64,000 nucleotides of DNA from Candidatus Wirthbacteria bacterium (GCA_903889905.1 CAISZI010000058.1:6160-70159); one strand, 5' to 3'. Positions 16,559-41,921 are shown, counted from the stretch's first letter. The notes: generated by a model not told the origin, from the sequence alone. A program made the numbers and translations.

Positions 16559-16565
16559 TCATTGA

Positions 16566-17936: not shown

Positions 17937-17973
17937 GTCCCAGCTTGGATCTATTCATTACCCACTACCTGTC

Positions 17974-18984
17974 ATGCCAGTCACTGCTTCAATCCTGATT
18001 CCAACGTTCAACCACGGCCCCACGCTGCGGTTTGCCTTGCAAAGTATCCTGGCGCAGACGGTACAGGATTTTGAAATTTTCGTGGTTGGTGATGGCGTGC
18101 CCGACGAACTCAAACCAGAAGTTCAGCGCCTTTGCCAAACAGACCCGCGCATTCAATTCTGTGACTACCCCAAAAGTTCGCACCGCGGCGAAATCTACCG
18201 CGACCAGATCATCCGTGAGCGTGCCTCCGGCACTCAAATTTTTTACCTTTCCGATGATGATCTCTGGCTCCCCCATCACCTGGAAGTCCTTGGCAAGGCG
18301 CTTTTGAACCATGATTTTGTCCATAGTTTGCACGTCAATGTGTTTCCAGGCGACTACCTCTCGACGCAAGTGACGGATCTCGCACTGCCTTCGCATCGAA
18401 CATGGCTGCTGAACAAACCGGATTTTGGTTTCGACACGACATTTGGGGCTCATACACGTTCATTTTACCTCGCGCTGGCCCATGGCTGGCGCCCGACGCC
18501 CGCAGGAGTCAACACCGACGTCTACATGTGGCGTCAATTTGTTGCAGCCCCCCGCTGCCGTCTTACCAGTATCCAAAAGCCGACCGGGTTTCACTTTGCC
18601 AGTCCCCTGCGCACAAACTGGACTCTCCAGCAACGCGTTGACGAACTGGCGCGCTGGAACCAAATGTTGGCAAGTCCGACCACTGTCAGCAACCTGATCG
18701 ACAGCATTTTCAACCAAACCATCACCGCCGCCGCCAAAGTTCAGGTGGACAACCAAAAAGAAATAAGCCAGTTAACATCACAATTGCAAAACACTTCAAC
18801 CGCTGCAACCCTGTTACAAACAGAACTAACTGCGATTCAACATGGCTTGCAACTAACCAAGCAGTCCCTGTCCCAGCTCCAAAACGAATCCCAATCGCTG
18901 CGCCAGCGTCTGGCAGCGATTGAATCTTCCCTCACCTGGCGACTCGGCTCCCGCCTCGCCCGCCTCTTCAAACCCTTCCACTGA
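17974..18984 (+). CDS. Family 2 glycosyltransferase with C-terminal coiled-coil
   Basis: SILIPTFNHGPTLRFALQSILAQT...FEIFVVGDG and a DDD motif typical of GT2. Start trimmed to MPVTAS. The C-terminal 80 aa is a heptad-like Q/L/S-rich coiled coil. Confidence 0.7.
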   Translation: MPVTASILIPTFNHGPTLRFALQSILAQTVQDFEIFVVGDGVPDELKPEVQRLCQTDPRIQFCDYPKSSHRGEIYRDQIIRERASGTQIFYLSDDDLWLPHHLEVLGKALLNHDFVHSLHVNVFPGDYLSTQVTDLALPSHRTWLLNKPDFGFDTTFGAHTRSFYLALAHGWRPTPAGVNTDVYMWRQFVAAPRCRLTSIQKPTGFHFASPLRTNWTLQQRVDELARWNQMLASPTTVSNLIDSIFNQTITAAAKVQVDNQKEISQLTSQLQNTSTAATLLQTELTAIQHGLQLTKQSLSQLQNESQSLRQRLAAIESSLTWRLGSRLARLFKPFH

Positions 18985-27792: not shown

Positions 27793-28758
27793 ATGCCCAT
27801 CAACATTCTTTTCTGTGGTTCCGGCGAATTCTGCATCAAACCTTTCATGGCTTTGCGTGCCATGTGTTCGCAGTCCGAAAGCTGCCACATTGCCGCCATC
27901 CTCAGCCAGGCAGCTAAACCCGCCGGCCGTGGCCAACAACTGCTGGAACCTCCTCTGTTGCAACATTTTCAAACCTCGGGCAATCCGGAAAACATACGCA
28001 TCTTCCAACCCGCCAAGCTTAGCCAGGGGGCAAATGAAATCATGACAGCGATCAATCCTGATTTGATCGTGGTGGTGGATTATGGTGAATTTATTCCGGA
28101 CCTGATGTTGCAACAACCTCGTTTTGGCGCCATCAATATTCATCCTTCGCTGCTGCCACGCTGGCGTGGCGCCATCCCTATTCAGGCAACCATTTTGGCT
28201 GGCGACAGCATGACCGGCGTCACCATTCAACAAATGGCCGCCAAAATGGATGCCGGGCCGATCTTGCGTCAGCAATCCCTGGAGATATCCCCCACGGCAA
28301 CAGCCTTTAGGTTGAGTGCGGAACTCTCCACCCTGGCGGCCACCATGTTGCCCGACACGATTAACGCCATGCTGGCTGGCGCAACCGATCCCCAGACGCA
28401 AAACGAAACCTTGGCTACCTATTGCTACCAGGACGACCTGACCAAGGACAAAGCCCACATCAACTGGGACGCACCCACCCTACAAATCCTCAACCAGATT
28501 CGCGCTTATATCCCCTACCCCATTGCCTGGAGTCTATTTCGCGGCAGTCGTTTGCTCATCCACCAGGCCTCAGCCTCAACTCAAGCAAGCGGTCCTGAGC
28601 TGCCTGGCGAACTTGTCCACGCGAACAACCAAGTCTTCGTGCGCGCCCAGGATGGCTGGCTGCAACTGCAAATCGTGCAAATGGCCGGCAAAAAACAAAT
28701 AAGCGGTCAACAATTTGTTGCCGGTTACCAGCTGCAAGCCAAAGAATTTTTGAGTTAA
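27793..28758 (+). CDS. fmt: Methionyl-tRNA formyltransferase
   Basis: N-terminal formyltransferase fold with IVVVDYGEFIP, NIHPSLLPRWRGAIPIQ (SLLP/HxSLLPxxRG motif), and C-terminal Fmt domain. Classic def-fmt pairing. Confidence 0.85.
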   Translation: MPINILFCGSGEFCIKPFMALRAMCSQSESCHIAAILSQAAKPAGRGQQLLEPPLLQHFQTSGNPENIRIFQPAKLSQGANEIMTAINPDLIVVVDYGEFIPDLMLQQPRFGAINIHPSLLPRWRGAIPIQATILAGDSMTGVTIQQMAAKMDAGPILRQQSLEISPTATAFRLSAELSTLAATMLPDTINAMLAGATDPQTQNETLATYCYQDDLTKDKAHINWDAPTLQILNQIRAYIPYPIAWSLFRGSRLLIHQASASTQASGPELPGELVHANNQVFVRAQDGWLQLQIVQMAGKKQISGQQFVAGYQLQAKEFLS

Positions 28759-29747
28759 CGGTGCAGCATCCTGCGGACAATCACTTCCAGGCGATAGCGA
28801 TGCACCAGAAAACGCAGTCCCAAAAACACCACAAAAAAGATAACAGTTAGAGCGCTCAGCAAGCGCCACGGGAATACCCAAAAAGTATCTTCCGCCACCA
28901 AAGCCGTTTGCCTGGCGCCATACCACATCGTCAGCTTGGCATGGTACATACCAAAAGCCAAAGGTTGACTCATGGGGATTTTAAATCCTGCAACATTGAC
29001 CAGATTGGTACGGCTGCCTAAACCCAGCACAAATTTACGGACACTTTTGGGCAGGACATACCCTTCACCGCTGATCGGTACAGATTGCACCAATGTACCG
29101 AATTCATTAAAAATTTCTAGCACTCCATCAGGTGCCAAATGTGTATTACCCGTATTATTCAGTCGCAAGGTAAATTGCCAGGGTGCTGTTTCATAAATAT
29201 CCTGCTGACCATAAAACTCAGCCACTGCCATTTTCTCGTTGAGCTGGCCACTGACCGTAACCAGGAAAATGGAGGCCACCTGCAAATTGATTTGACTCCC
29301 CTGGAGCCCGGAAGCAGCGTCCCGCGGCGCATTCGCAAACATCACTGCCCCATAGTGCCCGCCCGGCGCAGCATTTGCCGGCACCCGAATTGTTACTGGA
29401 ACGCTGATAAAAACGTTGGGTTGAGCCACCTGACTGTTTTGCGAAAGTTCCATCCACCGGCTCAAGGATCCAGGATCATCGGACTTGGGCAGATAAAATT
29501 TCGGCGCACCAGCCTCATCACCCGTAGCTGTAAAATCCATGGCTTTGGCTGATACCTGAATGGGTGAGGACACATCAAAGGCAATCTTAATCACGCCTGA
29601 CCAGATTTGCCCTGGTTCAAGATGCAGCTCTGTTTTGGACGGTTCCACATCCACGCCGCGCCGATTTTCCTGCGCACAGGCAACCTGAGGAAGCCAAAGG
29701 CAAAGGCTCAACGTAACTGGCAAACCCCACTTTAGAAGACGCGGCAT
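28755..29747 (-). CDS. Surface protein with signal peptide and C-terminal TM anchor; CscA/DUF916-DUF3324-like topology (paralog 1)
   Basis: Signal peptide ending LPQVACAQE. Conserved blocks PGGHYGAVMF...IFLVTVSGQ...LNNTGNTHLAPDG shared with the next gene. C-terminal TM (ALTVIFFVVFLGL) plus Arg-rich tail. Family assignment is inference. Confidence 0.4.
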   Translation of the reverse strand: MPRLLKWGLPVTLSLCLWLPQVACAQENRRGVDVEPSKTELHLEPGQIWSGVIKIAFDVSSPIQVSAKAMDFTATGDEAGAPKFYLPKSDDPGSLSRWMELSQNSQVAQPNVFISVPVTIRVPANAAPGGHYGAVMFANAPRDAASGLQGSQINLQVASIFLVTVSGQLNEKMAVAEFYGQQDIYETAPWQFTLRLNNTGNTHLAPDGVLEIFNEFGTLVQSVPISGEGYVLPKSVRKFVLGLGSRTNLVNVAGFKIPMSQPLAFGMYHAKLTMWYGARQTALVAEDTFWVFPWRLLSALTVIFFVVFLGLRFLVHRYRLEVIVRRMLHR

Positions 29748-29768
29748 AGCAAACTCACAAAAACGATA

Positions 29769-31133
29769 TTACTTGTCGTCTGATTCCCACTTCAAGCGGT
29801 CAGGGTCATCGAATGCCGTTGATTTCCGGTCACCTGGTTGAGGTTCAGACTGCGTGCCAGTCGCAGGCTCCGTTTTGTCTGATTTACCACCAAAGCCACG
29901 CCGGATGCGTTGAATACTGGATCTGAGGCGACTGCGACGTTCGGCACGTTTTTTCTTTTTCTCCAAACGTTTACGAACTTCATCGGCAACTTTGCGTTGC
30001 TCAACTTCCTGTGTTTTTTCGTATTTGCGAATCAGTCTGCGGTTATATAATTTGAGGAAAAACCGAATCAGCATGGTCAGGATCAGAATGCCCCCCACAA
30101 TACCCAAAATCAGTTTCCAGGGAATGACCCAGAAATAGGTGGAAGCCACCAATTGGCGTTCCTGCTGGTTGGCGTCGTCATAGACAACAATCGCTTTGGC
30201 GCTATAACGCCCAAGGCGAAAGATATTCCAGTTTTTCCAGTTGATTTGTAACTGCGTTTTTTTCTGACCCTTCGCATCCGTCTGGGCCACACCGTTGGCA
30301 TCCACCAAAACCATACTCGTAATAAACGAATCCATCCAGTAGGATTGGTATTTGCGGATACTGCCCGGCAGGACAACACCTGCCTGTTCATTCATGTTGA
30401 AATTGCCAACGTTTTTGTCTTGCCAGTCATAGACAAAAATTGTCCCCGAAGGGGCAAAGTGAACGTTACCGGAATTTTGCATACGGACATAAAAATCCAC
30501 TGGCAGATATTCGTAAAGCTTTTTGCCTGTATAGAATTCCAGAATATTGCCTTCTACTTTGACATCACCCGAAACCGTAACCAGAATCAAACTGCCAAGT
30601 TGCCCCTGAAATCCCAGCGTCGTCGTGCCTGTAGTCGAACTGCCCTGCACCACATAAAAAATGCCGTAGTGTCCACCGGGCTCGGCATCGGATGGAACAT
30701 TGATCACATATTCAATATTGATGGAACCATTGGGTTCAATATCGTGCGGAGTTTTGTCAAACTCCATCCATTCTGCCAAATGATAACGGTAGGAATTGTC
30801 CATGGTATCCAGAATTTTGGGGTCGCCATTTTCCTGGTCATTGGCGGTAAAATTTTTGGTCGCCGGCGCTACCCCTTTGATGCCAATCTCCCCGTCGTTG
30901 CGGACTTTGATGGATCCGCGAATCTTCTGCCCGGGACTCGCGAAGTACTCTTTTTTGTTAGGGATAATAATCAGGTCAAATGGAGACTGGGCACTCGCCA
31001 GCTGCGGGAATGCCGCCAGCACAAACCCAAAACAACATGCAGCGGAAATCAGCGACAATAAAAACAGCGCCGCTCGTGTCTGTGGCTTTCCGGAGGTGAT
31101 TTGTTCTTTCATTTTTGTCCAGTTTGAAATCAT
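29769..31133 (-). CDS. Surface protein with signal peptide and C-terminal TM anchor; CscA/DUF916-DUF3324-like topology (paralog 2)
   Basis: Blocks EPGGHYGIFYVV...LILVTVSGDV...MQNSGNVHFAPSG align with the previous gene. C-terminal TM (LILGIVGGILILTMLI) followed by a long K/R/E-rich tail. Confidence 0.4.
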   Translation of the reverse strand: MISNWTKMKEQITSGKPQTRAALFLLSLISAACCFGFVLAAFPQLASAQSPFDLIIIPNKKEYFASPGQKIRGSIKVRNDGEIGIKGVAPATKNFTANDQENGDPKILDTMDNSYRYHLAEWMEFDKTPHDIEPNGSINIEYVINVPSDAEPGGHYGIFYVVQGSSTTGTTTLGFQGQLGSLILVTVSGDVKVEGNILEFYTGKKLYEYLPVDFYVRMQNSGNVHFAPSGTIFVYDWQDKNVGNFNMNEQAGVVLPGSIRKYQSYWMDSFITSMVLVDANGVAQTDAKGQKKTQLQINWKNWNIFRLGRYSAKAIVVYDDANQQERQLVASTYFWVIPWKLILGIVGGILILTMLIRFFLKLYNRRLIRKYEKTQEVEQRKVADEVRKRLEKKKKRAERRSRLRSSIQRIRRGFGGKSDKTEPATGTQSEPQPGDRKSTAFDDPDRLKWESDDK

Positions 31134-31188
31134 AACGTGTCAAATTTAGCACTAAGACTGGGCAAAGTCTACCTATTATTTTATCACC

Positions 31189-31226
31189 AAAACAAAATCC
31201 CCCCGGCCATATTTCTGGCCGGGGGG
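31189..31226 (-). terminator. Rho-independent terminator downstream of the 1642-aa surface-protein gene
   Basis: 11-bp GC stem ccccccggcca/tggccgggggg, with a U-run on the minus transcript (plus-strand aaaacaaaa 31189-31197). Confidence 0.6.
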
Positions 31227-31254
31227 ACTTGTGACTGAGATCGAAACTTCAATC

Positions 31255-34200
31255 CTAATACTGGGCGCTTAACATCAGGTCGAGTGTATCCTGGTAGTTG
31301 CCAGAGGTCTGGTCAGCATTGATACGGATCATGTATTCGAGCGAGATGTTGTCACGAGCAGTAGAGACGTCATCACGAGCCAGGGTCTGGAACTGAGTGG
31401 ACAAAGGACCGGGGTCTTTGTTGTTGGGCTCGCCACCCTGGAAGGATGGAGCGACGAGGGTTGCGCCATTGACACCACCTGCGGTGTTACCGGCATTGCC
31501 CCAACGGGTACTTTGGCTGTAGGCATAGATACCGAAGCCCAAGTCAGAGGTATCTACCCAAGCGCGGAAGGGACTCGTATTATCAACAGTTTCGTCACGG
31601 ATCTGCAGGGTATAGCCATCCGCAGCGTTGGTATTGATCTTGATATTGTGGCCGCGGAAGTCGCTGACGCCTGAGAGGTCTGTCTGATAACCAGCTGGAT
31701 CAATTCTCCAGGTGGTCTGGTTGTCTTTGAAGAAGTAGGAATTGACGCCAGGGGTCACGCTGGTTGTAATGTCAGTGTTGCCAATGGTATCGGTATGGTC
31801 GGTAATCGTGAATTGGGTATCCAAACCTTCAGCGGTGGACAATACCCACAATGTCGAGTTGGAAGCGCGGTCGATATTGGCGCGAACGTTTACGTCAGTA
31901 GAGTTGATGGCACGATACAGGTTCGTCAGCAGTTTGGCAGCACGTTGATCCTGTGTGGTACCCGTGATGGAGGCGTAAACGTTGTTGGAAGCAAGCGCGG
32001 CATCAGCAGCAACACGTTTGAAGTAGTAGTTGACGCCACGGATGGTGACATAGTCGCCGGTAGCAGGAATACAAGCTTCATTGGCACCTGGGCCGCAGTT
32101 CATCTTGATGGTGATTTTGCCGTATTCGGTTTTGGCACCACCCAGGCGATAGAAAGCGTTAGGTTCGAGTGCCCCGAAGTCGACGCCGAGTGTGTCACGG
32201 TCACCTTCAACCTTGGAGAAGGCAAGACCGCCGTTGATTTCGATTGCGAGGTTGGGGTCGACACCGGCCGAAACCGTGATCTGGTCGTTATCAACGATGT
32301 AGACGGAGGTATAAGCCGTATCAAGCTGTTTGACGGTTGAACTGATATCCGAATCATTGACAACGGTAACCGTTGTTGCAGTGTAATCAGCGAGATAACC
32401 CAGGGTAAAGGCAGCGGTGGAATCAGTCCAGGTCCAGTAGAAGGTAGGACGGTCACCCGCTGCGGCAGTCGCAGCAATTTCAAATTTACCTGATGTCGGA
32501 GTGTCATAGGCCACCGCGTAGTTCGCGGCCGGGGCAGTTTTGGGGAATTTGGCCAGCTTGAGTTCAGCCGTCAATTGGGTGGCAACGTTAGCACCAGACG
32601 TTGCAGTGTTACTCACAATGCCACCAGCTGAATCACCGATCATGTCAAGCAGATAGGTACCAGCAACAATATCTGAAGTCCAGAGACCATTGGTGTACAA
32701 ATCATGCTTGTTTTCGGTAACGCCTAAGGTGCGAGCAGCTGTGGAGTTGGCGGCATCAGCAAAGTTGATGCCGGCGTCAGCAGTACCCGTTGCTTTGGCT
32801 ATTGTGAATTTGTTCGTAGTTGCATTATAAGCGACATTATATGTGTCCGCAGCTGCGGTTGGAGAAGCACTAAACATCCAGCGGGCGCCCTTGGTATGAG
32901 CGACACCTACACCCAATGCAATGTTAATGTTATTGCTCAATGGTTGAGCTGCACCCGAAATCACTGTGCCAGGATACTGCCAGGTAGTACCACCGTCAAT
33001 GGACCAGTGGAAGGTTCCAGGCGTACCAGTGCCATCAATTTCAACCAGGTATTTAATGGTGGTTGTACCGGTGTAAGTGTTCGAAGGGCCCGGTGTAGTG
33101 ATAGTAAGGCCAGCCACGCCGCCCGAACCAGTCCCTGTGAACGTTTTGGTAATAGTACCGCCGGTTGAAATAGTTTCTGTGTCATTGCAATTACTTAATG
33201 CAGTTGCAATGCCTGTTGCTGCTGCAGCACCAGCCAGCTCCGTCCCATTCACAATGCCACCACCACTATTGCTGACCAGGTCGCAGTTGGCATACGTACC
33301 GTCACCATTTAAGTCAACTGAGAGCAGGGCATTGATTTGTCCAGGTTGATCCGTAGTTGTACCTGTAACGGCATCATTGTTGGGTACAACATGGTCCGAG
33401 GTAAAGCCCAGATATGCGGCTGCCGTTGACGCTGTATCGCTGCTACCTGTGGCAATGAATGTGGCCGTGCCCCCAGCGTTGGTATCTTTGATCGTAAACA
33501 AGTTAGTGGTTGCGCTATAGGTAACGGTATAGGTATTTACACCAATGGCATTAAAAGTTGTTTGCAATGACGTAGCAACTGCCGCGCCAGTAATGAATGT
33601 ACCGGAGACAATGCCATTAGCGATAATGTTGAGACTTGTGTCGGCAGGGCCAACACCAGCCAATTTGTAACGTAAGGTATCATTGATGCCCGTCACGAAT
33701 TTGAATTGATCGTTAAAGACGAAGCGGCCAGCACCATTGGGGTTCCAGACAATACCAGAGTTACTGCCGACAGAGAAATCCCAGTAGTCACCGATCGTCC
33801 CGGTAAATGTCCAGCGGTCACCCACCTGATGAAGGGTTGTCGTTGTGTTAAAAGTAATTTTAACGCCTTCAGACAGAGGCAATTCATTCGTACTCAGAAT
33901 TGGTTGAGCCTGCTGAACCCAGGTGGTCCCACCGTCTTTGGACCAGCGGTAATTGTCGTAAGCAGTACCATTCTGTCCGCCGACGCCAGCAACACCACCG
34001 GAAAGGGATTCAATTTCAACACGGTAGTTGTTATTGGATGTACCCAAATAGGTACCAGAGGTGGTCAGGGTACCGGTGCCTGTTATTACGGGGGTTGAAG
34101 CGCTGATCGTTGGCCCAGCGTGTCCTGTCGTCGCGGCAAAAGTCACCGTGATGCCATTGGAAAGTTTCTGGGCGGCGCCCGTCATGGGCACATAATTGGC

Positions 34201-36183
34201 ATTCCAGTTGACACCAGCATCATCAGACCAGCGGATAGTATCAGTCGTACCAGCACTGTCAACTTGTACACGATAATTCATATTGGTTGCGTTGGTCGCG
34301 GTAGCACTCGTTGTGATGTCGCTCAAACCAGCACCTGTATGCACGGGAGAGGTTGGCGCTGAACGGGCAAAAGTCAGTTGTGAAGAAGAAAACGTTCCTG
34401 CAGCAATCTGGTACATGCCGGTCGTGGCAGGATTATAAATTTGTTGTTTACCGGTCTGAAGAGGAGAAGTTCCTTCATTGGTATTGCGGCCAATTTTGAC
34501 CTGCACATATTGTCCAGCGGCGATGCCAGTAGCATCCAGGTGAAAAAGGATGGAGTTGGCAGGAGTGGGATTGTGGGGATTGCAATACACGTTGACACCG
34601 TCAACACCGCTTAGGGTACGCAGAGTAAGGGTGTTGAAAGTGCCGTCTGTGCTGACAGCAAAGTCAACGTCTGTGAAAACCAAGTCGGTAGGAATCACAA
34701 ATCCGCTTGGGAATGTGATGACAACCTGACCAAAAGCGGGCACGGCCTGGGCGGTTTTGAAGCTAAGGGTATGGTCAGCAGCCACTAGCACGGCAGTTGT
34801 ACGTCCGTCTTTGGGTACGTTGTTGACCATGTCGATCGTGGGCAAGAAGTCCTGACCAGGAAAAGATGCCATGTGAACATAGGATTCTGTACCCGTTACA
34901 CCGCTGGAAACAACGGTGAACTTATTGGCACTACCCAAACCAAGTGATGTGACCGCGACATTGGCAGCGTTGTAGTCAACAGAAGCAGTTGCCGGATTGG
35001 TAGGAATATAACCTGCCCACAGGGACGAGATGTTTCTTTCGAGCATGCCATCAAGTCCGGGAGGAGTGGCGTTCCAAGCTCCGTGACCGATATAGTTACC
35101 AGCTGTAACCGTAATGGTTTCCGAACCGTTGGAGCTCTGTCCATCAAGGTCAAGGGTAAATTTATCATTGACACCCGTAATGATCGTGAACTGGGTTTCG
35201 TTGGGGCTGATGGCAGCCGTCGAGCGAACCGCGACAGTGTTAGCGGCGATGAAACCAAGCGTCGAAGTAGCCGTGCTGGTTGCGTCAGCCCAATAGATCG
35301 TGGGATTAATGGCGTTACCACCATCACCACGGATATTGAAGCGGTTGATATAGTCACCTGGTTCAGCAGAAGTGACGCCCGTTCCGTTGTTGGGCACATC
35401 TAAAGTAGAGGTAAAACCCAAATACAGGGCAGCGGTAGATAACGCGTCACCACTACCTGCAATATCAATACCGTTGACCCATAAGTTTTTGACAATCTTA
35501 AATTTCTGTGTTGCAGGGATGTAACTAACGGTATAAGTTTCACCACCGGCGTCCTTGGCAATCAAGGCCGTCTGGAGAGCAGCGGCAACATTCTGACCCG
35601 TGTAAGCAACGTGTGCCGTGAGGCCACCATCAGTGATCAGGCTTAAGGAAGCGTTCGCACCCGCTAAAGCGGCTGTATTGTAACGGAGGGTGTCATTGAC
35701 GCCCAGGGAAAACACATAGCTGTTGGTAGCAGAGTCAGCATAGGAGACCGTATAGGAATCGGACGCATGTCCGCCAATACCAGCTTGCAAAGCGGTTGCG
35801 ACTGCTTTGGCGACGTCCTGGCCCGAATAGGGCAACCCAGAGCTCAGGCCACCATTGGCGTGAGGCAAACCGCCATGCAATGCAGTGGTCAAATAGACAA
35901 TCGAATCACCACCTGTGGTGCAGTTCCCCGGAGTATGTGCACCAACGCCATCGTTGACGCAAATCTGGTCGTGCGCGTTATCGAATACGAATTTGGAACG
36001 GATCGGCGCATTACTTTCTGCATACCCGTTGGTAGCCGAACCAGTACCAGAACGTTTGATACGTGAAAGGCTGTCCTGGAATTCAGTCAGACGCCCATCG
36101 GCGCTACTGATTGACAGTGTCAGGTTGGACAATGTCATGGCGGCAATCACCAGCACCGCGAATTTTCTAAATACTTTTTTCAT
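31255..36183 (-). CDS. Giant (1642 aa) secreted surface protein with WxL-like C-terminal domain (candidate)
   Basis: Signal peptide MKKVFRKFAVLVIAAMTLSNLTLS. Highly repetitive T/G/S/N-rich beta-type sequence. No C-terminal TM. The last ~170 aa align with the C-terminus of the 36599-39646 protein (IKINTNAADGYTLQIRDET / LTISTNVGQGYMVTVEHDG; SLEYMIRINADQTSGNYQDTLDLMLSAQY / YVLYKIEISPSLLPGLYQNQITYFATATY). Confidence 0.5.
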   Translation of the reverse strand: MKKVFRKFAVLVIAAMTLSNLTLSISSADGRLTEFQDSLSRIKRSGTGSATNGYAESNAPIRSKFVFDNAHDQICVNDGVGAHTPGNCTTGGDSIVYLTTALHGGLPHANGGLSSGLPYSGQDVAKAVATALQAGIGGHASDSYTVSYADSATNSYVFSLGVNDTLRYNTAALAGANASLSLITDGGLTAHVAYTGQNVAAALQTALIAKDAGGETYTVSYIPATQKFKIVKNLWVNGIDIAGSGDALSTAALYLGFTSTLDVPNNGTGVTSAEPGDYINRFNIRGDGGNAINPTIYWADATSTATSTLGFIAANTVAVRSTAAISPNETQFTIITGVNDKFTLDLDGQSSNGSETITVTAGNYIGHGAWNATPPGLDGMLERNISSLWAGYIPTNPATASVDYNAANVAVTSLGLGSANKFTVVSSGVTGTESYVHMASFPGQDFLPTIDMVNNVPKDGRTTAVLVAADHTLSFKTAQAVPAFGQVVITFPSGFVIPTDLVFTDVDFAVSTDGTFNTLTLRTLSGVDGVNVYCNPHNPTPANSILFHLDATGIAAGQYVQVKIGRNTNEGTSPLQTGKQQIYNPATTGMYQIAAGTFSSSQLTFARSAPTSPVHTGAGLSDITTSATATNATNMNYRVQVDSAGTTDTIRWSDDAGVNWNANYVPMTGAAQKLSNGITVTFAATTGHAGPTISASTPVITGTGTLTTSGTYLGTSNNNYRVEIESLSGGVAGVGGQNGTAYDNYRWSKDGGTTWVQQAQPILSTNELPLSEGVKITFNTTTTLHQVGDRWTFTGTIGDYWDFSVGSNSGIVWNPNGAGRFVFNDQFKFVTGINDTLRYKLAGVGPADTSLNIIANGIVSGTFITGAAVATSLQTTFNAIGVNTYTVTYSATTNLFTIKDTNAGGTATFIATGSSDTASTAAAYLGFTSDHVVPNNDAVTGTTTDQPGQINALLSVDLNGDGTYANCDLVSNSGGGIVNGTELAGAAAATGIATALSNCNDTETISTGGTITKTFTGTGSGGVAGLTITTPGPSNTYTGTTTIKYLVEIDGTGTPGTFHWSIDGGTTWQYPGTVISGAAQPLSNNINIALGVGVAHTKGARWMFSASPTAAADTYNVAYNATTNKFTIAKATGTADAGINFADAANSTAARTLGVTENKHDLYTNGLWTSDIVAGTYLLDMIGDSAGGIVSNTATSGANVATQLTAELKLAKFPKTAPAANYAVAYDTPTSGKFEIAATAAAGDRPTFYWTWTDSTAAFTLGYLADYTATTVTVVNDSDISSTVKQLDTAYTSVYIVDNDQITVSAGVDPNLAIEINGGLAFSKVEGDRDTLGVDFGALEPNAFYRLGGAKTEYGKITIKMNCGPGANEACIPATGDYVTIRGVNYYFKRVAADAALASNNVYASITGTTQDQRAAKLLTNLYRAINSTDVNVRANIDRASNSTLWVLSTAEGLDTQFTITDHTDTIGNTDITTSVTPGVNSYFFKDNQTTWRIDPAGYQTDLSGVSDFRGHNIKINTNAADGYTLQIRDETVDNTSPFRAWVDTSDLGFGIYAYSQSTRWGNAGNTAGGVNGATLVAPSFQGGEPNNKDPGPLSTQFQTLARDDVSTARDNISLEYMIRINADQTSGNYQDTLDLMLSAQY

Positions 36184-36231
36184 TTTTTGTCTCCTTTTGT
36201 TTTTTTGACTGATTTATGATTTATGTGAAGG

Positions 36232-36402
36232 TTATTTGACAAACCGTTCTTCCCTAAACGACAGTACCCGCTCGACCAGCGGGATAGGGATAAATTGCAA
36301 CTGCGCTTCCCTGGGGCGTAACAACTCTTTGTAGTTCTCGATCAGCCACTGCAATTTGCGTTGCTTTTTTGCTTTGGTATTTGTTTTTTTGGTAGCTGCC
36401 AT
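36232..36402 (-). CDS. Possible small basic protein (56 aa) between the two giant surface-protein genes
   Basis: ATG preceded by GGAG. Translation is MAATKKTNTKAKKQRKLQWLIENYKELLRPREAQLQFIPIPLVERVLSFREERFVK. Below the ORF-track size cut-off. No homology recognised. Confidence 0.25.
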   Translation of the reverse strand: MAATKKTNTKAKKQRKLQWLIENYKELLRPREAQLQFIPIPLVERVLSFREERFVK

Positions 36403-36598
36403 CGCGGCTCCTGTTTATGACTAATCATTTAATTGTATCGCCCTTCATCTTCTCCGTCAATGCCTATATGGAGGATTTGTGGAGAGCTGGATACACATGG
36501 GTATTCGTTTAATTATACCAAAAAAAGCCCCCTTGTGAAGAGGGAGCTTGAATTATGGTTACTTTCAACCTTTTATGACCTTTGCCCTTGTGACTTAT

Positions 36599-39500
36599 TT
36601 AATACGTTGCAGTCGCAAAATAAGTAATTTGATTTTGATAAAGCCCGGGCAAAAGCGATGGACTTATTTCAATTTTGTACAGCACGTAGGCTTTGTCTTC
36701 AAAAACTGCTGTGCCACTATACATAATTTCCTCAGGCAATGTGCTCAATCCGGCATATTTATTGGCAAATCCCCGGAAGCGCGCCGGGCCGTTGCCAACG
36801 TCGTGCAATGTCACAAAATCAGTGTGGTACCCGATTACCCCACCCGTTGTTGAAGCCCAATATGTCGGAGTGCTGTTGGGGGCACTAAACGGATCGATGG
36901 TATCCTGATTTTGCAGAACAGTTCTCATTGGGCCGTCATGTTCAACGGTAACCATATATCCCTGCCCCACATTGGTGCTGATCGTCAACTTGTGGGCACC
37001 AATTTTGGGAGTATGAATGCTTAATATGCCGAAATCAACGGTATCACTGTCTGTACTGATGTCGGTCGTTTCCTTTTCCAAAAGGCCAGACCCGAGATTG
37101 AGTGTTCCTGCAGGAACACCCTCGATATAAAAATTAAGCGAGGTAATGACCAGCACACTGGTGATCGGGCCCCAAGCCCCTTCATTTCCAACCTTATCGC
37201 GAACTCGTAGCTGAAGATAGTACATTCCTGCCCGCTGAAATCGCAAATCCTGAGTCCAGGTGGTCACGTTACCCAGCCAGCGCTTGGCTATAAAATCATC
37301 ACCATTTACGGAGGTACCGATACGGATATAATATCCGTCCACTCCACTGCGATCATAAACGCCAGCCCATTGCCAGGTCGGGGTGACATCAGTCGTTGCT
37401 TGTGGGCCAATGATCACCGGGCCATCAGGAGCATCGCGGTCGTCATACTGGTAACCATCAAACAGTTGATAATTGGTCGAGGCAAGCGCCGAGCTCGCAA
37501 CCTGTCCCAACGAATCGCAAATCTGATAGCTGGGAGAACTTTTGCATGGACCTGTCGTATTGATCAAGCCGCCATGAATATAGGAATCACTCGCAAGATA
37601 CCAATCTGTGCCCTGGGAGTCAGACGCGGCTCCCTGGAGAGAACCGACAAACAGGTATTCCCGGCCGGCAGAATGAATCGCTGCTACAGCTGTAACATCA
37701 TTGCTGCGCAAAGGCGGGACACTGGCAGTCGTATAATTATTAATATTGCTGTCGGCACTCTGGACATCAATATTGGACTGGGTTACATAATTCCCAACCA
37801 TCCCCAGTTTAATCACGGAAACAGCCCCGCCACCGACATTGTCATTCGTTCCAACCCACATGATTCGTCCATCACGCGTCACATTTAAATCAGCAACTTC
37901 ATTGGTTGTCCCGCTGAGCAGTTTCGGGTACGGGCTGATGCGGGCGGCATTGGATTTGGAATAAATGGCCCAGGCATTCTGCGGTGTTAAGGCAGCGCCC
38001 GTCACCATCAACTCGTCCAACCCGCCATTGAAATACTCGGCGCCGCTGTGATCGCGTCCGATATTGAGCACAGCATTGGTGCCACTGATTGATCCAGAAG
38101 TCACCAGACCTGAGTTGTGGGCGGCTTCAATGCCATTGACATACAACGTCAAGGCTGACCCCGGCGCCCAAACCAGAGCAAATTGAGTCCAGTTATTATT
38201 ATCGACCGAACTGATGGATTGGACGGTATCCCAGTTTGATCCGTCATCTGAGACACGGCCGCCCAGCTTCCCGGCAGTATCGATATAGAGCTGGTAACCA
38301 ATTCTAATGCCGTCTGTCCGGTCAATTATTTTGACCTGGCCACCGGCAGTTGATCCCTGTTTAAACCAACCAGTAATCGAAAAACAACCTGTTCCGAAAT
38401 CAAAATTGGCATTGTAATTTTGCGACAGATATTGTGAGGACGACGAAGTAAATGAAATTCCATATCCGCGGACTCCTGACGCTGACCGGTTAATACCGCT
38501 GTTCACACTTAAATTATTGCCCTTGCCACTTTTATCAAGAAAATTTCCAGCTGCTTCTTCAAATGTCCACGTCCCCCTGACACTTCCAGGCATCTCTTCG
38601 GTGATATAATCTTTGGTGAAATACTTGACTGAACCTGTATTTTCACTACCAATCGGGCCTTCATTGATCACGGCTACCCCTTTGCTGCTGCCAACGTAAA
38701 TCGTATTGCGTGCAGGACCAATGGTACTGGTATTGACGGTTGCCTTGAGCGGATAGACAGTCGCATTGACGTTTTCCTGCAAGGCCGGCAAGGAAGAAGT
38801 AGAATATTTTGCCGCCGGTGTGCCTTGGTCGCTGCTATCACCCTGAATATTGTAAAAAACATCAATTTCACCCGTTGTCTGATTACTGAAATACAGGGAT
38901 CCGTCACTGTTCAATGCCACTTTGTTGATATTGTCGCTAGATGAGGCGGAATAATAATTGTGAACCTGATCCGTTGCTTCATTGATCACACTCACACCTG
39001 TCGCAGTGGCCAGTGCAAGATAATTCAAACCGGCGATCGTCGCGATACTGACGTCATGCACGTCGTTGCTGGCAATCTGTGAGACAGCCTCCGGGGTCCA
39101 GCTTGCGTTGCGATTACGCCCTTCGATGGCGGTCTTGGAGGAAAATTTATTCACCGTGCTGTAGTAAAATGCCTTGTCCAGAACAAAATCCAAGACGGTG
39201 AGTCTTGATGTGGAAGTGACGAAAATCTTGCCATCATGCGCGACAACTCCCGTGATTGTGCTGCTGTCCAGCATATTGTTGGCCGCTTTGTTAAAACGCA
39301 TCCAGAACATATGGCTTTCGGCATTAATAATGTCCAGGCTGGCATCGGTCACGACCAAGTAGGCATAACGCGGGAAATCGGTTTCTTTGCCACGTGTACA
39401 GGGTTGGGCACACGTTTCGCCAAACCAGCTGGTCTTCTGTGCATGCAAATCCTTGCGCCAGGCTCCCTGATCGGCATCAAGATCGGCATTATAAACATAA

Positions 39501-39646
39501 GCATGGCGTACGTTATTATCCCCCAATGTATAATTCCCTTGACTGTCGGGAAGTGAGGTATCATAGGTAAAAGCCTCTGCATTTGTTAAGGGAAGCAGAG
39601 TGAATAGAAGAAAAACACAAGCAAAGTAATAAATTTTGTTACGCAC
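36599..39646 (-). CDS. Large (1015 aa) secreted protein with LamG/concanavalin-like domain and WxL-like C-terminal domain (candidate)
   Basis: Signal peptide. Central LamG-like block (FDFGTGCFSITGWFKQ...LTLYVNGIEAAHNSG...NIGRDHSGAEYFNGGLDELMV). C-terminal ~170 aa homologous to the C-terminus of the 31255-36183 protein. No TM anchor. Confidence 0.5.
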   Translation of the reverse strand: MRNKIYYFACVFLLFTLLPLTNAEAFTYDTSLPDSQGNYTLGDNNVRHAYVYNADLDADQGAWRKDLHAQKTSWFGETCAQPCTRGKETDFPRYAYLVVTDASLDIINAESHMFWMRFNKAANNMLDSSTITGVVAHDGKIFVTSTSRLTVLDFVLDKAFYYSTVNKFSSKTAIEGRNRNASWTPEAVSQIASNDVHDVSIATIAGLNYLALATATGVSVINEATDQVHNYYSASSSDNINKVALNSDGSLYFSNQTTGEIDVFYNIQGDSSDQGTPAAKYSTSSLPALQENVNATVYPLKATVNTSTIGPARNTIYVGSSKGVAVINEGPIGSENTGSVKYFTKDYITEEMPGSVRGTWTFEEAAGNFLDKSGKGNNLSVNSGINRSASGVRGYGISFTSSSSQYLSQNYNANFDFGTGCFSITGWFKQGSTAGGQVKIIDRTDGIRIGYQLYIDTAGKLGGRVSDDGSNWDTVQSISSVDNNNWTQFALVWAPGSALTLYVNGIEAAHNSGLVTSGSISGTNAVLNIGRDHSGAEYFNGGLDELMVTGAALTPQNAWAIYSKSNAARISPYPKLLSGTTNEVADLNVTRDGRIMWVGTNDNVGGGAVSVIKLGMVGNYVTQSNIDVQSADSNINNYTTASVPPLRSNDVTAVAAIHSAGREYLFVGSLQGAASDSQGTDWYLASDSYIHGGLINTTGPCKSSPSYQICDSLGQVASSALASTNYQLFDGYQYDDRDAPDGPVIIGPQATTDVTPTWQWAGVYDRSGVDGYYIRIGTSVNGDDFIAKRWLGNVTTWTQDLRFQRAGMYYLQLRVRDKVGNEGAWGPITSVLVITSLNFYIEGVPAGTLNLGSGLLEKETTDISTDSDTVDFGILSIHTPKIGAHKLTISTNVGQGYMVTVEHDGPMRTVLQNQDTIDPFSAPNSTPTYWASTTGGVIGYHTDFVTLHDVGNGPARFRGFANKYAGLSTLPEEIMYSGTAVFEDKAYVLYKIEISPSLLPGLYQNQITYFATATY

Positions 39647-40787: not shown

Positions 40788-41921
40788 TTATAAACTGGTC
40801 AAGACAACGAACTGGCTGGTAGTACTTGTATAATATTCCAGCTCGGCGCGCAGCGTCCACGCGTTCCCGTCTGACTGGTACAAATAACCTGTGCGCTTTT
40901 CCGTGTCGGCCAGATTGGGATCGTGCGGCAACCTGGTCAGATATACAGGTACCAGTGCACTGGACAGAGCAAAAACATCCGCTTCGCTGTGACTTGGCGG
41001 AAAAGCCTGGTGAACAACAAAATAATCCGCCAGCGCGCGCTGGATAGCGGCCAAATCATCCCGTCGTTGATTGTCCCTGGCCTTTTTGGCAGTATCGGCC
41101 ACAATTTCATCCAGGTTGGCGTCAACGCTCTGGCTGACCACCTGCAAGTCGGTGATGCTGCCAGGCCCGAACTCCCAGAGTACGTCCACGGGCAAGACCT
41201 TGCCCTGAAAAGTCGTCAGTCCCGCCTTAAAAATAACCTGATAGATCACCTGTGGGTCCCAGTGGTTGAGCGCCAGCACAAGCTGCACAGTGTGGCTGGA
41301 AACCGCATAATTCACCTGTTTGACCAGATTGACAGGGGAAGCACGTATCTGGACCACGAAATGCACGGCGTCGGCGGTTTGTTTGTCCAGCGCGCTGCTT
41401 AAATTCAAACTGATCTGTGGTGCGGCACCAAGCAAAGTGGCGCTTAAAGGTTGTCCGGCCGACGGCAGCGAAGACTGCAGCGTCAAGGGCATATCCGAAA
41501 TTTTGAAACTGTCCGCCAGTGGTTCGGTGCGACGATATAGCATGGCTTTGAGCTGGGCTTTTTCTCCCGCCGCCACCTGCAGCTCCGCACTCCAGGGATA
41601 GGTGTTGTCTGATTCCAGACGTACCGCATAAGTGCCCGGTTCGAGGTTGGCAAAAACAAAAGGGGTGGTATGACCAGTATCTTTGAGGTCAAATAAAATT
41701 CTGACGCCGGTTGGCTCCGACGCAACCACCAGCTCGCCCTTGCTGGAAGTTGTTGTCTTGTCAGTTTGCGTGGGCGAGAAATCCTGTGCAGTATTGGCCG
41801 TATTGGCGTTGTTTGGTGCCGGCGTCTGCTGCAGTGACCAGACAGTCAGCGCCACGCCCCCCAATAACATCACCAGGATCAAACTGCCGATAATTTTTCT
41901 CATGTCGTTGGACCAACCCAT
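40788..41921 (-). CDS. Membrane-anchored PEGA-domain protein with C-terminal pilin-like (GspG/pseudopilin-type) domain
   Basis: N-terminal TM. PEGA-like block LVVASEPTGVRILFDLKDTGHTTPFVFANLEPGTYAVRL. C-terminal ARDNQRRDDLAAIQRALADYF...FPP motif resembles the pseudopilin core (RD..R..DL..I..AL..Y). Confidence 0.5.
   Translation of the reverse strand: MGWSNDMRKIIGSLILVMLLGGVALTVWSLQQTPAPNNANTANTAQDFSPTQTDKTTTSSKGELVVASEPTGVRILFDLKDTGHTTPFVFANLEPGTYAVRLESDNTYPWSAELQVAAGEKAQLKAMLYRRTEPLADSFKISDMPLTLQSSLPSAGQPLSATLLGAAPQISLNLSSALDKQTADAVHFVVQIRASPVNLVKQVNYAVSSHTVQLVLALNHWDPQVIYQVIFKAGLTTFQGKVLPVDVLWEFGPGSITDLQVVSQSVDANLDEIVADTAKKARDNQRRDDLAAIQRALADYFVVHQAFPPSHSEADVFALSSALVPVYLTRLPHDPNLADTEKRTGYLYQSDGNAWTLRAELEYYTSTTSQFVVLTSL

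Follow-up and report, generated by a model that had tools for sequence, protein, structure and literature searches.

The locus comprises four consecutive open reading frames on the minus strand, at positions 28755-39646 of the 64-kb stretch of Candidatus Wirthbacteria DNA under analysis (64,000 nucleotides; here called the window). All four were present at the coordinates proposed by the first-pass annotation and all have predicted signal segments, so that the earlier description of a run of same-strand secreted proteins holds. The first gene of the block is D (36599-39646, 1015 aa), followed by C (31255-36183, 1642 aa), B (29769-31133, 454 aa) and A (28755-29747, 330 aa). Gene order and genomic position are kept in Ca. 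Wirthbacteria CG2_30_54_11 and in two more genomes, at 37-67% protein identity and within the conserved neighbourhood fmt-MazG-def-priA-dut-dcd; conservation of both order and position across genomes argues that the block is more than a chance arrangement. By consensus scan alone, a terminator-like hairpin (36512..36549, minus strand) lies directly 3' of D and is overlapped by a sigma-70-like promoter (11/12 matches) ahead of C, and a strong terminator-like hairpin with a 15-bp stem containing 10 GC pairs (31195..31230, minus strand) lies between C and B.

Judged by their sequences, A and B are paralogs, as had been claimed: BLASTP aligns them with 30% identity (E 2e-37) over the whole ectodomain and the TM segment. 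Hydropathy analysis of each revealed an N-terminal hydrophobic signal segment and a single C-terminal TM-like segment. The AF2 model of A (pLDDT 88.5) contains two beta-sandwich domains and a helix at residues 294-329; the predicted TM helix spans about aa 294-318 (nt 28794-28868, minus strand) and is followed by a basic tail. The topology assigned to the pair at first reading, a signal peptide, a beta-rich ectodomain and a C-terminal TM helix, is therefore what hydropathy of both proteins and the model of A indicate. B is of a long type, with a signal peptide, two predicted beta-sandwich domains that carry an insertion of ~30 aa in alignment A1, a TM segment placed by hydropathy at about aa 335-360 (nt 30054-30131, minus strand) and a charged cytoplasmic tail of about 90 aa; it is 50% identical to a 412-aa Wirthbacteria ortholog.

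The A ectodomain contains a putative donor hairpin at aa 129-165 (29253..29363, minus strand), formed by a conserved strand PGGHYGAV.F, a flexible loop and a second conserved strand VASIFLVTVSG, in which hydrophobic residues alternate. Both strands rank among the most conserved blocks of alignment A1, and the pLDDT of the model falls to 62 at residues 141-150, between two confident strands. By analogy with the WxLIP-WxL complex (PMC10599100) and with the Pam preprint (10.64898/2026.03.03.709456), on which this assignment leans, the segment is a candidate equivalent of the F1-G1 hairpin of chaperone-usher (CU) chaperones and of the hairpin that WxLIP inserts into WxL.

Csc/WxL clusters of Bacillota encode a WxLIP (CscA, PF06030 + PF11797 + TM), small and large WxL proteins (CscB/CscC, PF13731) and an LPXTG protein, CscD (Hassan, Chaudhuri & Williamson 2023, PMC10599100); the structures cited for this system are PDB 9i1y and 9i25, the latter being the solved complex of WxLIP with a long WxL protein. 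The Pam pilus, reported as exclusive to CPR bacteria, consists of PamA/B/E pilins, a PamT tip, the membrane-anchored chaperones PamC/PamD and the RbmA-like membrane anchor PamR (Troman et al., bioRxiv 10.64898/2026.03.03.709456), and is represented by the NCBIfam models NF058578, NF058579 and NF058581. In canonical Pam pilins, the N-terminal part is a beta-sandwich of nine strands, and each subunit donates a linker strand to the next one (10.64898/2026.03.03.709456).

The CscA (DUF916/DUF3324) likeness first suggested for A and B is upheld by profile and fold comparisons of their family. A Pfam search of A and B themselves gave no match at E<=1, and so neither PF06030 nor PF11797. PF06030 was matched by 18 of 26 family relatives (best E 4.9e-12), and two chaperones of Patescibacteria-type loci, P0021 (46.4 bits) and P0014 (28.2 bits), exceed the Pfam gathering cut-off for it; the P0021 gene immediately follows that of a Pam-CTD pilin. 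None of the chaperone-family searches reported PF11797. The A/B family profile recovered the PDB structure of E. faecium WxLIP1 (EfmWxLIP1) over both domains (E 7e-6), and the family HMM matched five Firmicute (plasmid) WxLIPs over HMM positions 10-312 (E 4e-16 to 8e-7). Aligned by hhalign to Firmicute WxLIP/CscA proteins (DUF916+DUF3324), the family scored a probability of 98.3% (E 2e-14, 257 columns), with reversed controls at 1.1% or less. The top Foldseek match of the A model was 9i25_C, 'WxLIP bound to long WxL' (E 5.8e-11), alongside the CU chaperones CfaA, CsuC, Caf1M, SafB and EcpB (E 6e-11 to 1e-6); the best PDB fold for A is thus the E. faecium WxLIP, tied with chaperone-usher chaperones. 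For the Pam side we used P0009, which occupies the chaperone slot in a canonical CPR pam operon, and not the M. amalyticus PamC/D sequences: A and P0009 are 32% identical (E 5e-33). P0009 lies between two Pam pilins and PamR, and the PamT and PamR of that operon exceed the NCBIfam equivalog cut-offs. These comparisons place A and B in the same superfamily as CscA/WxLIP (DUF916+DUF3324+TM), an assignment at superfamily level without direct Pfam assignment. Gene A is accordingly predicted, by sequence and model, to encode a membrane-anchored PapD-like chaperone with two Ig-like domains, of a family that would unite PamC/D with WxLIP. The link between Pam chaperones and WxLIP is well supported here, and the homology appears to be previously unreported.

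C and D have an N-terminal hydrophobic segment only; neither a C-terminal TM segment nor a C-terminal LPXTG motif was found, in agreement with the claim that they carry signal peptides and lack membrane or LPXTG anchors. D is composed of the signal peptide, beta-propeller-like regions (weak Pfam matches), a LamG domain, an Ig/FN3-like region and a Pam-type C-terminal domain (CTD). The LamG-like, or concanavalin-A-like, lectin domain noticed earlier is clear, Pfam Laminin_G_3 (PF13385) matching aa 415-556 (37979..38404, minus strand) with 77 bits against a cut-off of 27.6 (E 1.8e-21). D is 50% identical to its Wirthbacteria ortholog over the full length. In C, the signal peptide precedes a long beta-type region that is rich in Thr, Gly and Ala and includes three Asp-box-like repeats (SxDxGxTW); the conserved C-terminal module of 532 aa ends in a Pam-type CTD. 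Compared with its Wirthbacteria ortholog, C is 67.5% identical in these C-terminal 532 aa and 45% in the N-terminal 600 aa; the middle ~500 aa are specific to this genome.

The CTD of D spans aa 864-1015 (36602..37057, minus strand), matches NF058581 over model positions 2-148 (36.1 bits, E 6e-9) and ends in TATY; that of C spans aa 1505-1642 (31258..31671, minus strand), matches positions 22-148 (23.2 bits, E 6e-5) and ends in SAQY. Both scores lie under the curated cut-off of 55 bits, canonical pilins scoring 131-146 bits; NF058581 was nevertheless the only or best NCBIfam match for the C-termini of both proteins, aligned through the last residue. The C domain is divergent, its match beginning at about model position 21, and its first strand was not identified. 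The D domain is also weakly like PamT (E 0.0018). A direct BLASTP comparison of C with D yields 27% identity over 140 aa at E 0.17; the shared domain is invisible at this level and is established by profiles. In hhalign, the CTDs of C, D and their orthologs align with canonical Pam CTDs at 95.6% probability (E 1.3e-8, 138 columns; reversed control 0.3%). An HMM of 83 canonical pilins of 330-420 aa, from which the window sequences were left out, recovered D at E 1.3e-15, C only with a domain E of 0.0018 and the ortholog of C at E 2.5e-7. The same full-length pilin HMM aligns solely to the CTD of C, D and other giant CTD proteins, and the nine-strand N-terminal domain (NTD) and linker of canonical pilins find no match anywhere in C or D; hence no donor strand was identified in either protein. 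For the region upstream of the D CTD, the model stays under pLDDT 50. A partial AF2 model of the CTD, of low confidence, is closest in fold to the PapG pilin domain, CsuA/B, FimG, CfaB, TasA-like fibres and cannulae, which all are donor-strand fibres. By sequence homology, C and D end in a Pam-pilin CTD, an incomplete Ig-like pilin fold that is only partly modelled. The ~170-aa domain originally proposed as common to the two is thus indeed shared, although about 135-150 aa long.

The CTD is a widespread C-terminal module, which supports the idea of a general C-terminal domain implied by the first-pass annotation. A phmmer search with the D CTD returned 515 representative matches; among the best 150 of these, the match sits at the C-terminus in 148, and hundreds of other proteins end in this domain. 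Chaperone + CTD loci are common in Patescibacteria. Across Patescibacteria and Wirthbacteria, 66 of the 68 loci having both genes place the CTD gene at most 500 bp upstream of the chaperone gene on the same strand, and behind each giant CTD protein come two chaperone genes, one of them of the longer type. The expectation that no such locus exists outside Bacilli/Lactobacillales is outdated: a 2026 preprint described this type of locus as the Pam pilus, and NCBIfam has models for it.

C and D had been read as WxL proteins. In a Firmicute-type Csc/WxL complex, their CTDs would be highly divergent WxL domains that bind peptidoglycan non-covalently and are stabilised by the WxLIP-like A and B. This explanation draws on the homology of A and B to WxLIP over both domains and on their shared topology, and on a cluster of the same kind, with a membrane-anchored two-Ig-domain protein beside two secreted proteins that have a C-terminal domain in common and of which one is very large and has N-terminal binding domains. 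The predicted mechanism, in which a hairpin strand completes an incomplete beta-sandwich, is likewise common to both. Alignments of the CTD with WxL domains run end-to-end and collinearly, FG being followed by GYxV against GWxL and then by TLTY against TLTW, and score 21-27 in hhalign, consistently above the reversed controls (10-16). The CTD residues at the WxL motif positions are GYxV and TxTY, not WxL; Y replaces W in some genuine WxL domains. However, the hhalign probability against WxL alignments of 7 and 14 sequences is just 3-16% (P 0.0016-0.017), Pfam WxL (PF13731) is matched neither by full-length C and D (E<=1) nor by the CTDs even at E<=10, the iterated CTD profile never recruited annotated WxL proteins, and the 50-60 best fold matches of the CTD model, which is poor, include no WxL chain. 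In further contrast to Csc/WxL clusters, the locus has no small single-domain WxL protein and no LPXTG CscD-like partner (no LPXTG occurs near any C-terminus), A and B miss PF06030 and PF11797 as Pfam assignments, the phylum is different and peptidoglycan binding is not indicated. We therefore regard a Csc/WxL complex in the strict sense as unlikely; the weak collinear similarity only suggests a remote homology between CTD and WxL. Of the divergent Csc-like system proposed in the first-pass annotation, the WxLIP/CscA homology of A and B stands, whereas C and D are not recognisable WxL proteins and have a CTD of Pam-pilin type. That annotation had named, as the outcome that would speak against it, a lack of WxL/DUF916 similarity together with absence of the CTD elsewhere in the genome; DUF916 similarity was found and the CTD is widespread, WxL-domain similarity itself not being established.

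A true polymeric Pam pilus, in which C and/or D would be the major pilins, joined head-to-tail into long filaments through donor-strand exchange, and A and B would serve solely as transient assembly chaperones, would fit the homology of the CTDs to those of PamA/B, pilins proven by cryo-EM, and the position of the CTD genes ahead of the chaperone, which is the gene order of canonical operons; the terminator-like hairpins after D and C would permit excess expression of the structural genes. Yet C and D are 3-5 times the size of Pam pilins, with lectin, propeller and repeat regions in 1015 and 1642 aa where canonical CTD proteins have 340-520 aa and a nine-strand NTD, and the NTD and linker that would supply the donor strand are undetectable by the pilin HMM. 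PamT and PamR were not found in the 64-kb window (best phmmer E for a PamR query against the window ORFs, 0.05), the CTD within the window is carried by C and D only, and the window has no small CTD-bearing ORF (at least 100 aa). Giant CTD proteins, moreover, form a separate architecture class that always occurs with two chaperones, here in tandem and one with a long cytoplasmic tail. On this balance long filaments of C or D appear quite improbable. Least credible of all is that the genes are unrelated neighbours, the CTD acting as a tag for sorting or secretion, or as an S-layer-type anchor, served by machinery elsewhere and A and B independent Ig-domain membrane proteins. The position of the CTD at the extreme C-terminus, with F or Y as last residue in 141 of the best 150 relatives, does have the look of a sorting signal, and the hairpins after D and C point to separate transcription units; set against this are the tight linkage of CTD and chaperone genes across Patescibacteria and Wirthbacteria, the fold matches of the chaperone to CU chaperones and WxLIP, the solved WxLIP-WxL complex (9i25) and the fold matches of the CTD to donor-strand pilins.

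We consider it probable that the locus represents a divergent giant-adhesin version of the Pam chaperone-assisted donor-strand surface-fibre system, with chaperones homologous to WxLIP/CscA. Within the 64-kb window, this variant has two chaperones and is without PamT, PamR or small pilins. With Pam it shares the homologous C-terminal pilin domain, the homologous chaperones of signal peptide, PapD-like ectodomain and C-terminal TM helix, the lack of an usher among the neighbouring genes scanned and the monoderm cell type of an ultra-small-bacteria lineage. Against this reading, the CTD scores fall under the NCBIfam cut-off, no donor strand was identified in C or D, and fmt, def, priA and queA flank the locus in place of the ATP synthase genes that usually accompany pam operons; the host, too, belongs to the Wirthbacteria lineage instead of CPR. 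The most likely mode of action of the locus is donor-strand complementation, a principle common to chaperone-usher pili (Pap/Fim, CFA/I, archaic Csu, CupE). The A model has the two-domain fold of CU chaperones and the low-confidence CTD model best fits pilin domains of such pili; unlike in those systems, there is no outer membrane, no usher-like gene was found among the neighbouring genes scanned, the chaperone is predicted to be TM-tethered and not soluble in the periplasm, the subunits are giant and sequence similarity is not detectable.

As judged from their signal peptides, all four proteins would be exported by Sec. A and B would then be held in the cytoplasmic membrane by the C-terminal helix, with the PapD-like two-domain ectodomain outside, as the model and homology indicate. 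Strand insertion into the pilin CTD has been predicted for PamC/D (10.64898/2026.03.03.709456); following the Pam and WxLIP-WxL models, the hairpin strand of the first chaperone domain would complete the presumably incomplete Ig-like domain at the end of C and D, which may keep the giant proteins folded and held at the cell surface. Each adhesin might remain docked on its own membrane-anchored chaperone. Alternatively, a short fibre may be built via donor-strand exchange, with D, which bears the LamG lectin and propeller and, as first gene of the block, holds the slot of the tip subunit PamT in canonical pam operons, as the distal tip, C as the stalk and one of the two chaperones as a membrane anchor that replaces the missing PamR, a role perhaps taken by the long-tailed B. 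The function that we propose for either arrangement is adhesion to a partner cell or a polysaccharide surface.

The Wirthbacteria lineage is a proposed sister of CPR, and the locus would extend the Pam system beyond CPR to it. Such loci would be prime candidates for the host-attachment organelles of uncultured episymbionts, and the Pam CTD would serve more generally to mount giant surface proteins. The WxL/Csc clusters of enterococci, listeriae and lactobacilli are poorly understood and have been linked to adhesion and virulence. With Pam chaperones as DUF916/WxLIP homologs, two separately studied systems are joined, and donor-strand complementation by a membrane-tethered PapD-like chaperone becomes a frame for the WxL/Csc clusters as well.

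More tentatively, and with somewhat more doubt than confidence, we suggest that the Pam pili of CPR and the Csc/WxL complexes of Firmicutes are two branches of one ancient usher-less monoderm system that works by membrane-anchored chaperones and donor-strand complementation, WxL and Pam CTD being homologous acceptor domains and the Wirthbacteria locus a third, adhesin-display branch. If so, WxLIP would act as a pilus-type chaperone or anchor and not bind peptidoglycan and host, and short fibres may be built from WxL proteins. In the adhesin-display branch, the CTD would mount proteins of up to several thousand residues on the cell; among the best 150 CTD representatives, 50 have at least 1000 aa and the largest has 5845 aa.

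The four open reading frames all lie on the minus strand, with boundaries that agree exactly with those of the first-pass annotation. Transcription runs from D (36599-39646; 1015 aa) through C (31255-36183; 1642 aa) and B (29769-31133; 454 aa) to A (28755-29747; 330 aa). All four proteins carry export signals, seen in hydropathy profiles as an N-terminal signal-type segment; a single C-terminal transmembrane segment is found among them only in A and B. The large secreted proteins C and D have neither a C-terminal LPXTG motif nor a C-terminal transmembrane segment, and a reading as sortase substrates was dropped for want of the LPXTG motif. D further contains a Laminin_G_3 domain (Pfam, E = 1.8e-21).

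An exact-sequence look-up found no record of A, which has its closest relative in Candidatus Wirthbacteria bacterium CG2_30_54_11. A contig of this bacterium carries the same block, consisting of a 1015/1021-aa LamG protein and proteins of 1182, 412 and 335 aa, and then the same neighbours as in the window (fmt, MazG, def, priA, dut and dcd). Identities to the Wirthbacteria orthologs are 37% for A, 50% for B, 50% for D over its full length, and, for C, 45% over the N-terminal 600 aa and 67.5% over the C-terminal 532 aa; the housekeeping proteins are 39-60% identical between the window and Wirthbacteria. The shared block and both sets of identities identify the window genome as a distant member of the Wirthbacteria lineage, which NCBI taxonomy treats as a phylum outside Patescibacteria. 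The arrangement is common to two further genomes. The locus is real and conserved, and the four-gene block is old and maintained. Membership in a type IV pilus cluster was dropped because the neighbours are housekeeping genes.

A and B are paralogs (30% identity, E = 2e-37; BLASTP). Direct Pfam and NCBIfam scans yielded no match for either protein, and their wider relationship came to light through family profiles only. In A1, a 26-sequence alignment of the A/B family, 18 of the 26 members match PF06030 (WxLIP_PGBD, formerly DUF916). Searched against the PDB, the A1 profile matched the E. faecium WxLIP1 chains over both domains (E = 7e-6 and 1e-5), and it also matched plasmid-encoded WxLIPs of Enterococcus, Lactococcus, Bacillus and Latilactobacillus (E = 4e-16 to 8e-7). 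Comparison of A1 with four Firmicute WxLIPs by hhalign gave 98.3% (E = 2e-14) over 257 columns, and reversed controls gave at most 1.1%. AF2 modelled A (pLDDT 88.5) as a pair of beta-sandwich domains with a long helix at the C-terminus. In the PDB, this model is matched best by 9i25_C, described as 'WxLIP from E. faecium locus A bound to long WxL', and by the chaperone-usher chaperones CfaA, CsuC, Caf1M, SafB and EcpB. A and B are membrane-anchored proteins with a PapD/WxLIP-like fold.

The sole NCBIfam match of D, 'CPR_Pam_pilin_C', pointed to a preprint on the Pam pilus. In the CPR bacterium Ca. Mycosynbacter amalyticus, cryo-EM showed the filaments to consist of the pilins PamA and PamB; the pam operon further encodes PamT (tip), PamE and PamR (anchor) as well as PamC and PamD, two PapD/FimC-like chaperones with a C-terminal transmembrane helix (bioRxiv 10.64898/2026.03.03.709456). 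P0009, a relative of A (32% identity, E = 5e-33), is encoded inside a textbook pam operon adjoining ATP synthase genes, in which PamT scores 277 bits (cut-off 240), PamR 347 bits (cut-off 300) and the C-terminal domains of two pilins 131-133 bits. The kinship of P0009 to A and its canonical operon place A and B in the PamC/D chaperone family. Chaperones of canonical CPR operons match PF06030 across the entire domain, and two exceed the Pfam gathering cut-off; the gene for one of the two, P0021, lies directly downstream of a pilin gene with a Pam C-terminal domain. The locus exposes a homology between the Pam chaperones and the Firmicute WxLIP proteins that is apparently unreported; the preprint mentions neither WxL nor DUF916 nor DUF3324 (bioRxiv 10.64898/2026.03.03.709456), and the literature searched held no paper connecting the Pam and WxL systems.

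The C-terminal domain (CTD) shared by C and D was not significant in a direct comparison of the two proteins (BLASTP, E = 0.17) and is established, at the sequence level, through profiles. The C-terminus of D matches NF058581, the Pam-pilin type family, with 36 bits (E = 6e-9, model positions 2-148), and that of C with 23 bits (E = 6e-5, model positions 22-148), in both cases up to the last residue and below the curated cut-off of 55 bits. An alignment of C, D and their Wirthbacteria orthologs compared with one of 23 canonical Pam CTDs gave 95.6% (hhalign; E = 1.3e-8, 138 columns; control 0.3%), and because the two alignments are disjoint this support is non-circular. An HMM built from 83 canonical pilins at full length matched the D CTD (E = 1.3e-15) and the ortholog of C (E = 2.5e-7) in the CTD region only, with no alignment to the N-terminal domain or linker of the pilins. 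The CTDs of C and D are homologous to the Pam domain that in the solved filaments forms an open beta-barrel closed by a strand of the neighbour. A profile search of the PDB with the CTD alignment returned a chance match alone (6lci, E = 0.59); Pam pilin chains are absent by sequence from the copy searched. Residues 721-1015 of D were modelled poorly by AF2 (pLDDT 53, from a PamT-rich input alignment), which makes fold searches with the CTD indicative only.

Two features of C lie outside the recognised CTD. A middle region of ~500 aa (aa 606-1110), missing from the Wirthbacteria ortholog, contains three ~70-aa repeats with an Asp-box-like SxDxGxTW motif. At aa 1331-1366 (LGVDFGALEPN...KITIKMNCGPG), ~150 aa upstream of the CTD, a segment resembles the first CTD strands; the resemblance is not significant by BLASTP, and this look-alike suggests that the CTD of C may be split or partly duplicated.

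Used as a single query in a word-indexed homolog search, the D CTD gave no matches, and finding its homologs required an alignment query and an exhaustive phmmer search. The latter retrieved 515 proteins at E <= 1e-3 among 1.84 billion representative proteins. Among the best 150 of these, the match came to within 5 residues of the C-terminal end in 148, and 141 had a terminal F or Y. The shortest of the 150 has 146 aa and the longest 5845 aa, and 50 are at least 1000 aa long. Within the window, C and D are the only carriers.

Gene linkage was assessed in 85 non-redundant loci with a chaperone homolog, most of them Patescibacteria loci obtained by a GTDB scan with an 8-sequence alignment and the motif P[ALE]NA[AE]PGG[HY]; the scan is biased to Patescibacteria-type chaperones, and the absence of Firmicutes from it is uninformative. 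A CTD gene was present in 68 of the 85 loci, and in 66 of these 68 it lay at most 500 bp upstream of a chaperone gene on the same strand. The CTD and chaperone components are tightly coupled genetically, which counters an assignment of the CTD as a T9SS-type CTD or S-layer anchor. Usually a PamT-like protein (~250 aa) is followed by one to five pilins (340-420 aa) and then a chaperone (~330 aa). In a minority layout, which is that of the window, the gene for a CTD protein of >1000 aa precedes a tandem pair of chaperone genes, one for a protein of ~330 aa and the other for a longer one (355-584 aa); the Wirthbacteria genomes share this layout, as do some Saccharibacteria, Paceibacteria and Parcubacteria (L041, L048, L084, L081, L065, L009). 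Chaperone or PamR genes at several canonical loci of Patescibacteria directly adjoin genes for giant proteins (1358 to >3600 aa) with NosD/beta-helix, Kelch/beta-propeller and fn3 domains, which do not score with the CTD profile (L004 12122-20990, L005 1-9169, L007 11034-20960, L003 11027-20993). Patescibacteria-type pam-like loci were also seen in GTDB genomes titled 'uncultured Gammaproteobacteria bacterium' (L015, L016, L052, L058, L070, L075, L083); these titles, L052 being an 886-kb chromosome (OZ246416.1), are probably mislabelled.

Pfam gave no WxL match in C or D, even at E <= 10. Against WxL alignments of 7 and 14 sequences, taken from annotated WxL clusters on Firmicute plasmids, the CTD reached 3-16% probability (hhalign, P = 0.0016-0.017), with scores always about twice those of reversed controls. 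The alignments are collinear and end-to-end: the FG strand is paired, GYxV falls on GWxL, and TLTY falls on TLTW. Some true WxL domains have Y for W at the motif positions. An iterated CTD profile run over all fetched loci recruited no Firmicute WxL protein. On these sequence comparisons, the CTD and the WxL domain may be remote homologs. Annotated WxL domains of Pediococcus inopinatus (L095 6164-6763) and Bacillus thuringiensis (L097 6148-6753) have GYTV as first or LTYSI as last motif in place of W-x-L, the Y-for-W pattern that is also seen in GYxV and TLTY, the motifs of the Pam CTD.

The first-pass annotation had read the locus as Firmicute Csc/WxL-like, with A and B as CscA-type and C and D as WxL-type proteins, and this reading is supported in part. 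The first assignment is correct at the superfamily level, as judged from the A1 profile, PF06030, hhalign and the fold matches to WxLIP, and the proposal that the C-terminal domain is a general module is borne out by the 515 carriers and its C-terminal position. Membership of C and D in the WxL family is not supported, given the lack of a Pfam match, the low hhalign probability and the failed recruitment, and the expected restriction to Bacilli/Lactobacillales is outdated in view of the Patescibacteria loci.

In the putative donor hairpin of A, which is conserved in A1, a flexible loop (pLDDT 62) separates PGGHYGAV.F from VASIFLVTVSG. By analogy, this hairpin would complete the CTDs of both large proteins; PamC and PamD are predicted to act likewise on pilins (bioRxiv 10.64898/2026.03.03.709456), and WxLIP is predicted to complete WxL in the same way (PMC10599100), a pair for which a crystal complex exists (9i25). 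We favour an arrangement in which the giant adhesins would be displayed on membrane-tethered chaperones. Alternatively, the proteins could form a short fibre with D as the tip, C as the stalk and the chaperone as the anchor. Display is preferred because no small pilin, PamT or PamR was found in the window and no donor strand was detected in C or D with the canonical-pilin HMM. D would be the natural distal adhesin, since its gene opens the block, its CTD is the more PamT-like and it combines a lectin with a propeller. A consensus scan placed strong terminator-like hairpins on the minus strand directly 3' of D (36512-36549, overlapped by an 11/12 sigma-70-like promoter) and directly 3' of C (31195-31230, with a 15-bp stem). 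These hairpins could set the subunit:chaperone ratio, and expression may differ between the units D, C and B-A. The locus is best described as a giant-adhesin variant of a Pam/WxLIP chaperone-assisted surface system, a kind of system known since 2026, of which the giant architecture and the host lineage are new.

Elsewhere in the window, a 377-aa membrane protein with a PEGA domain is encoded two genes upstream of D, past queA (40788-41921, minus strand). A 2090-aa open reading frame at 10286-18984 (plus strand) contains two GDSL lipase/acylhydrolase domains and no Pam CTD, and is followed 3' by genes for an NDP-hexose 2,3-dehydratase and a family-2 glycosyltransferase; it represents a giant secreted protein beside sugar-modification genes and is unrelated to the four-gene block. 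The methionyl-tRNA formyltransferase at 27793-28758 (plus strand) has 321 aa, and those of three related Wirthbacteria-type genomes (L001 11330-12988, L008 2484-4148, L009 5909-7576) have 552-555 aa, with an additional region of ~230 aa.
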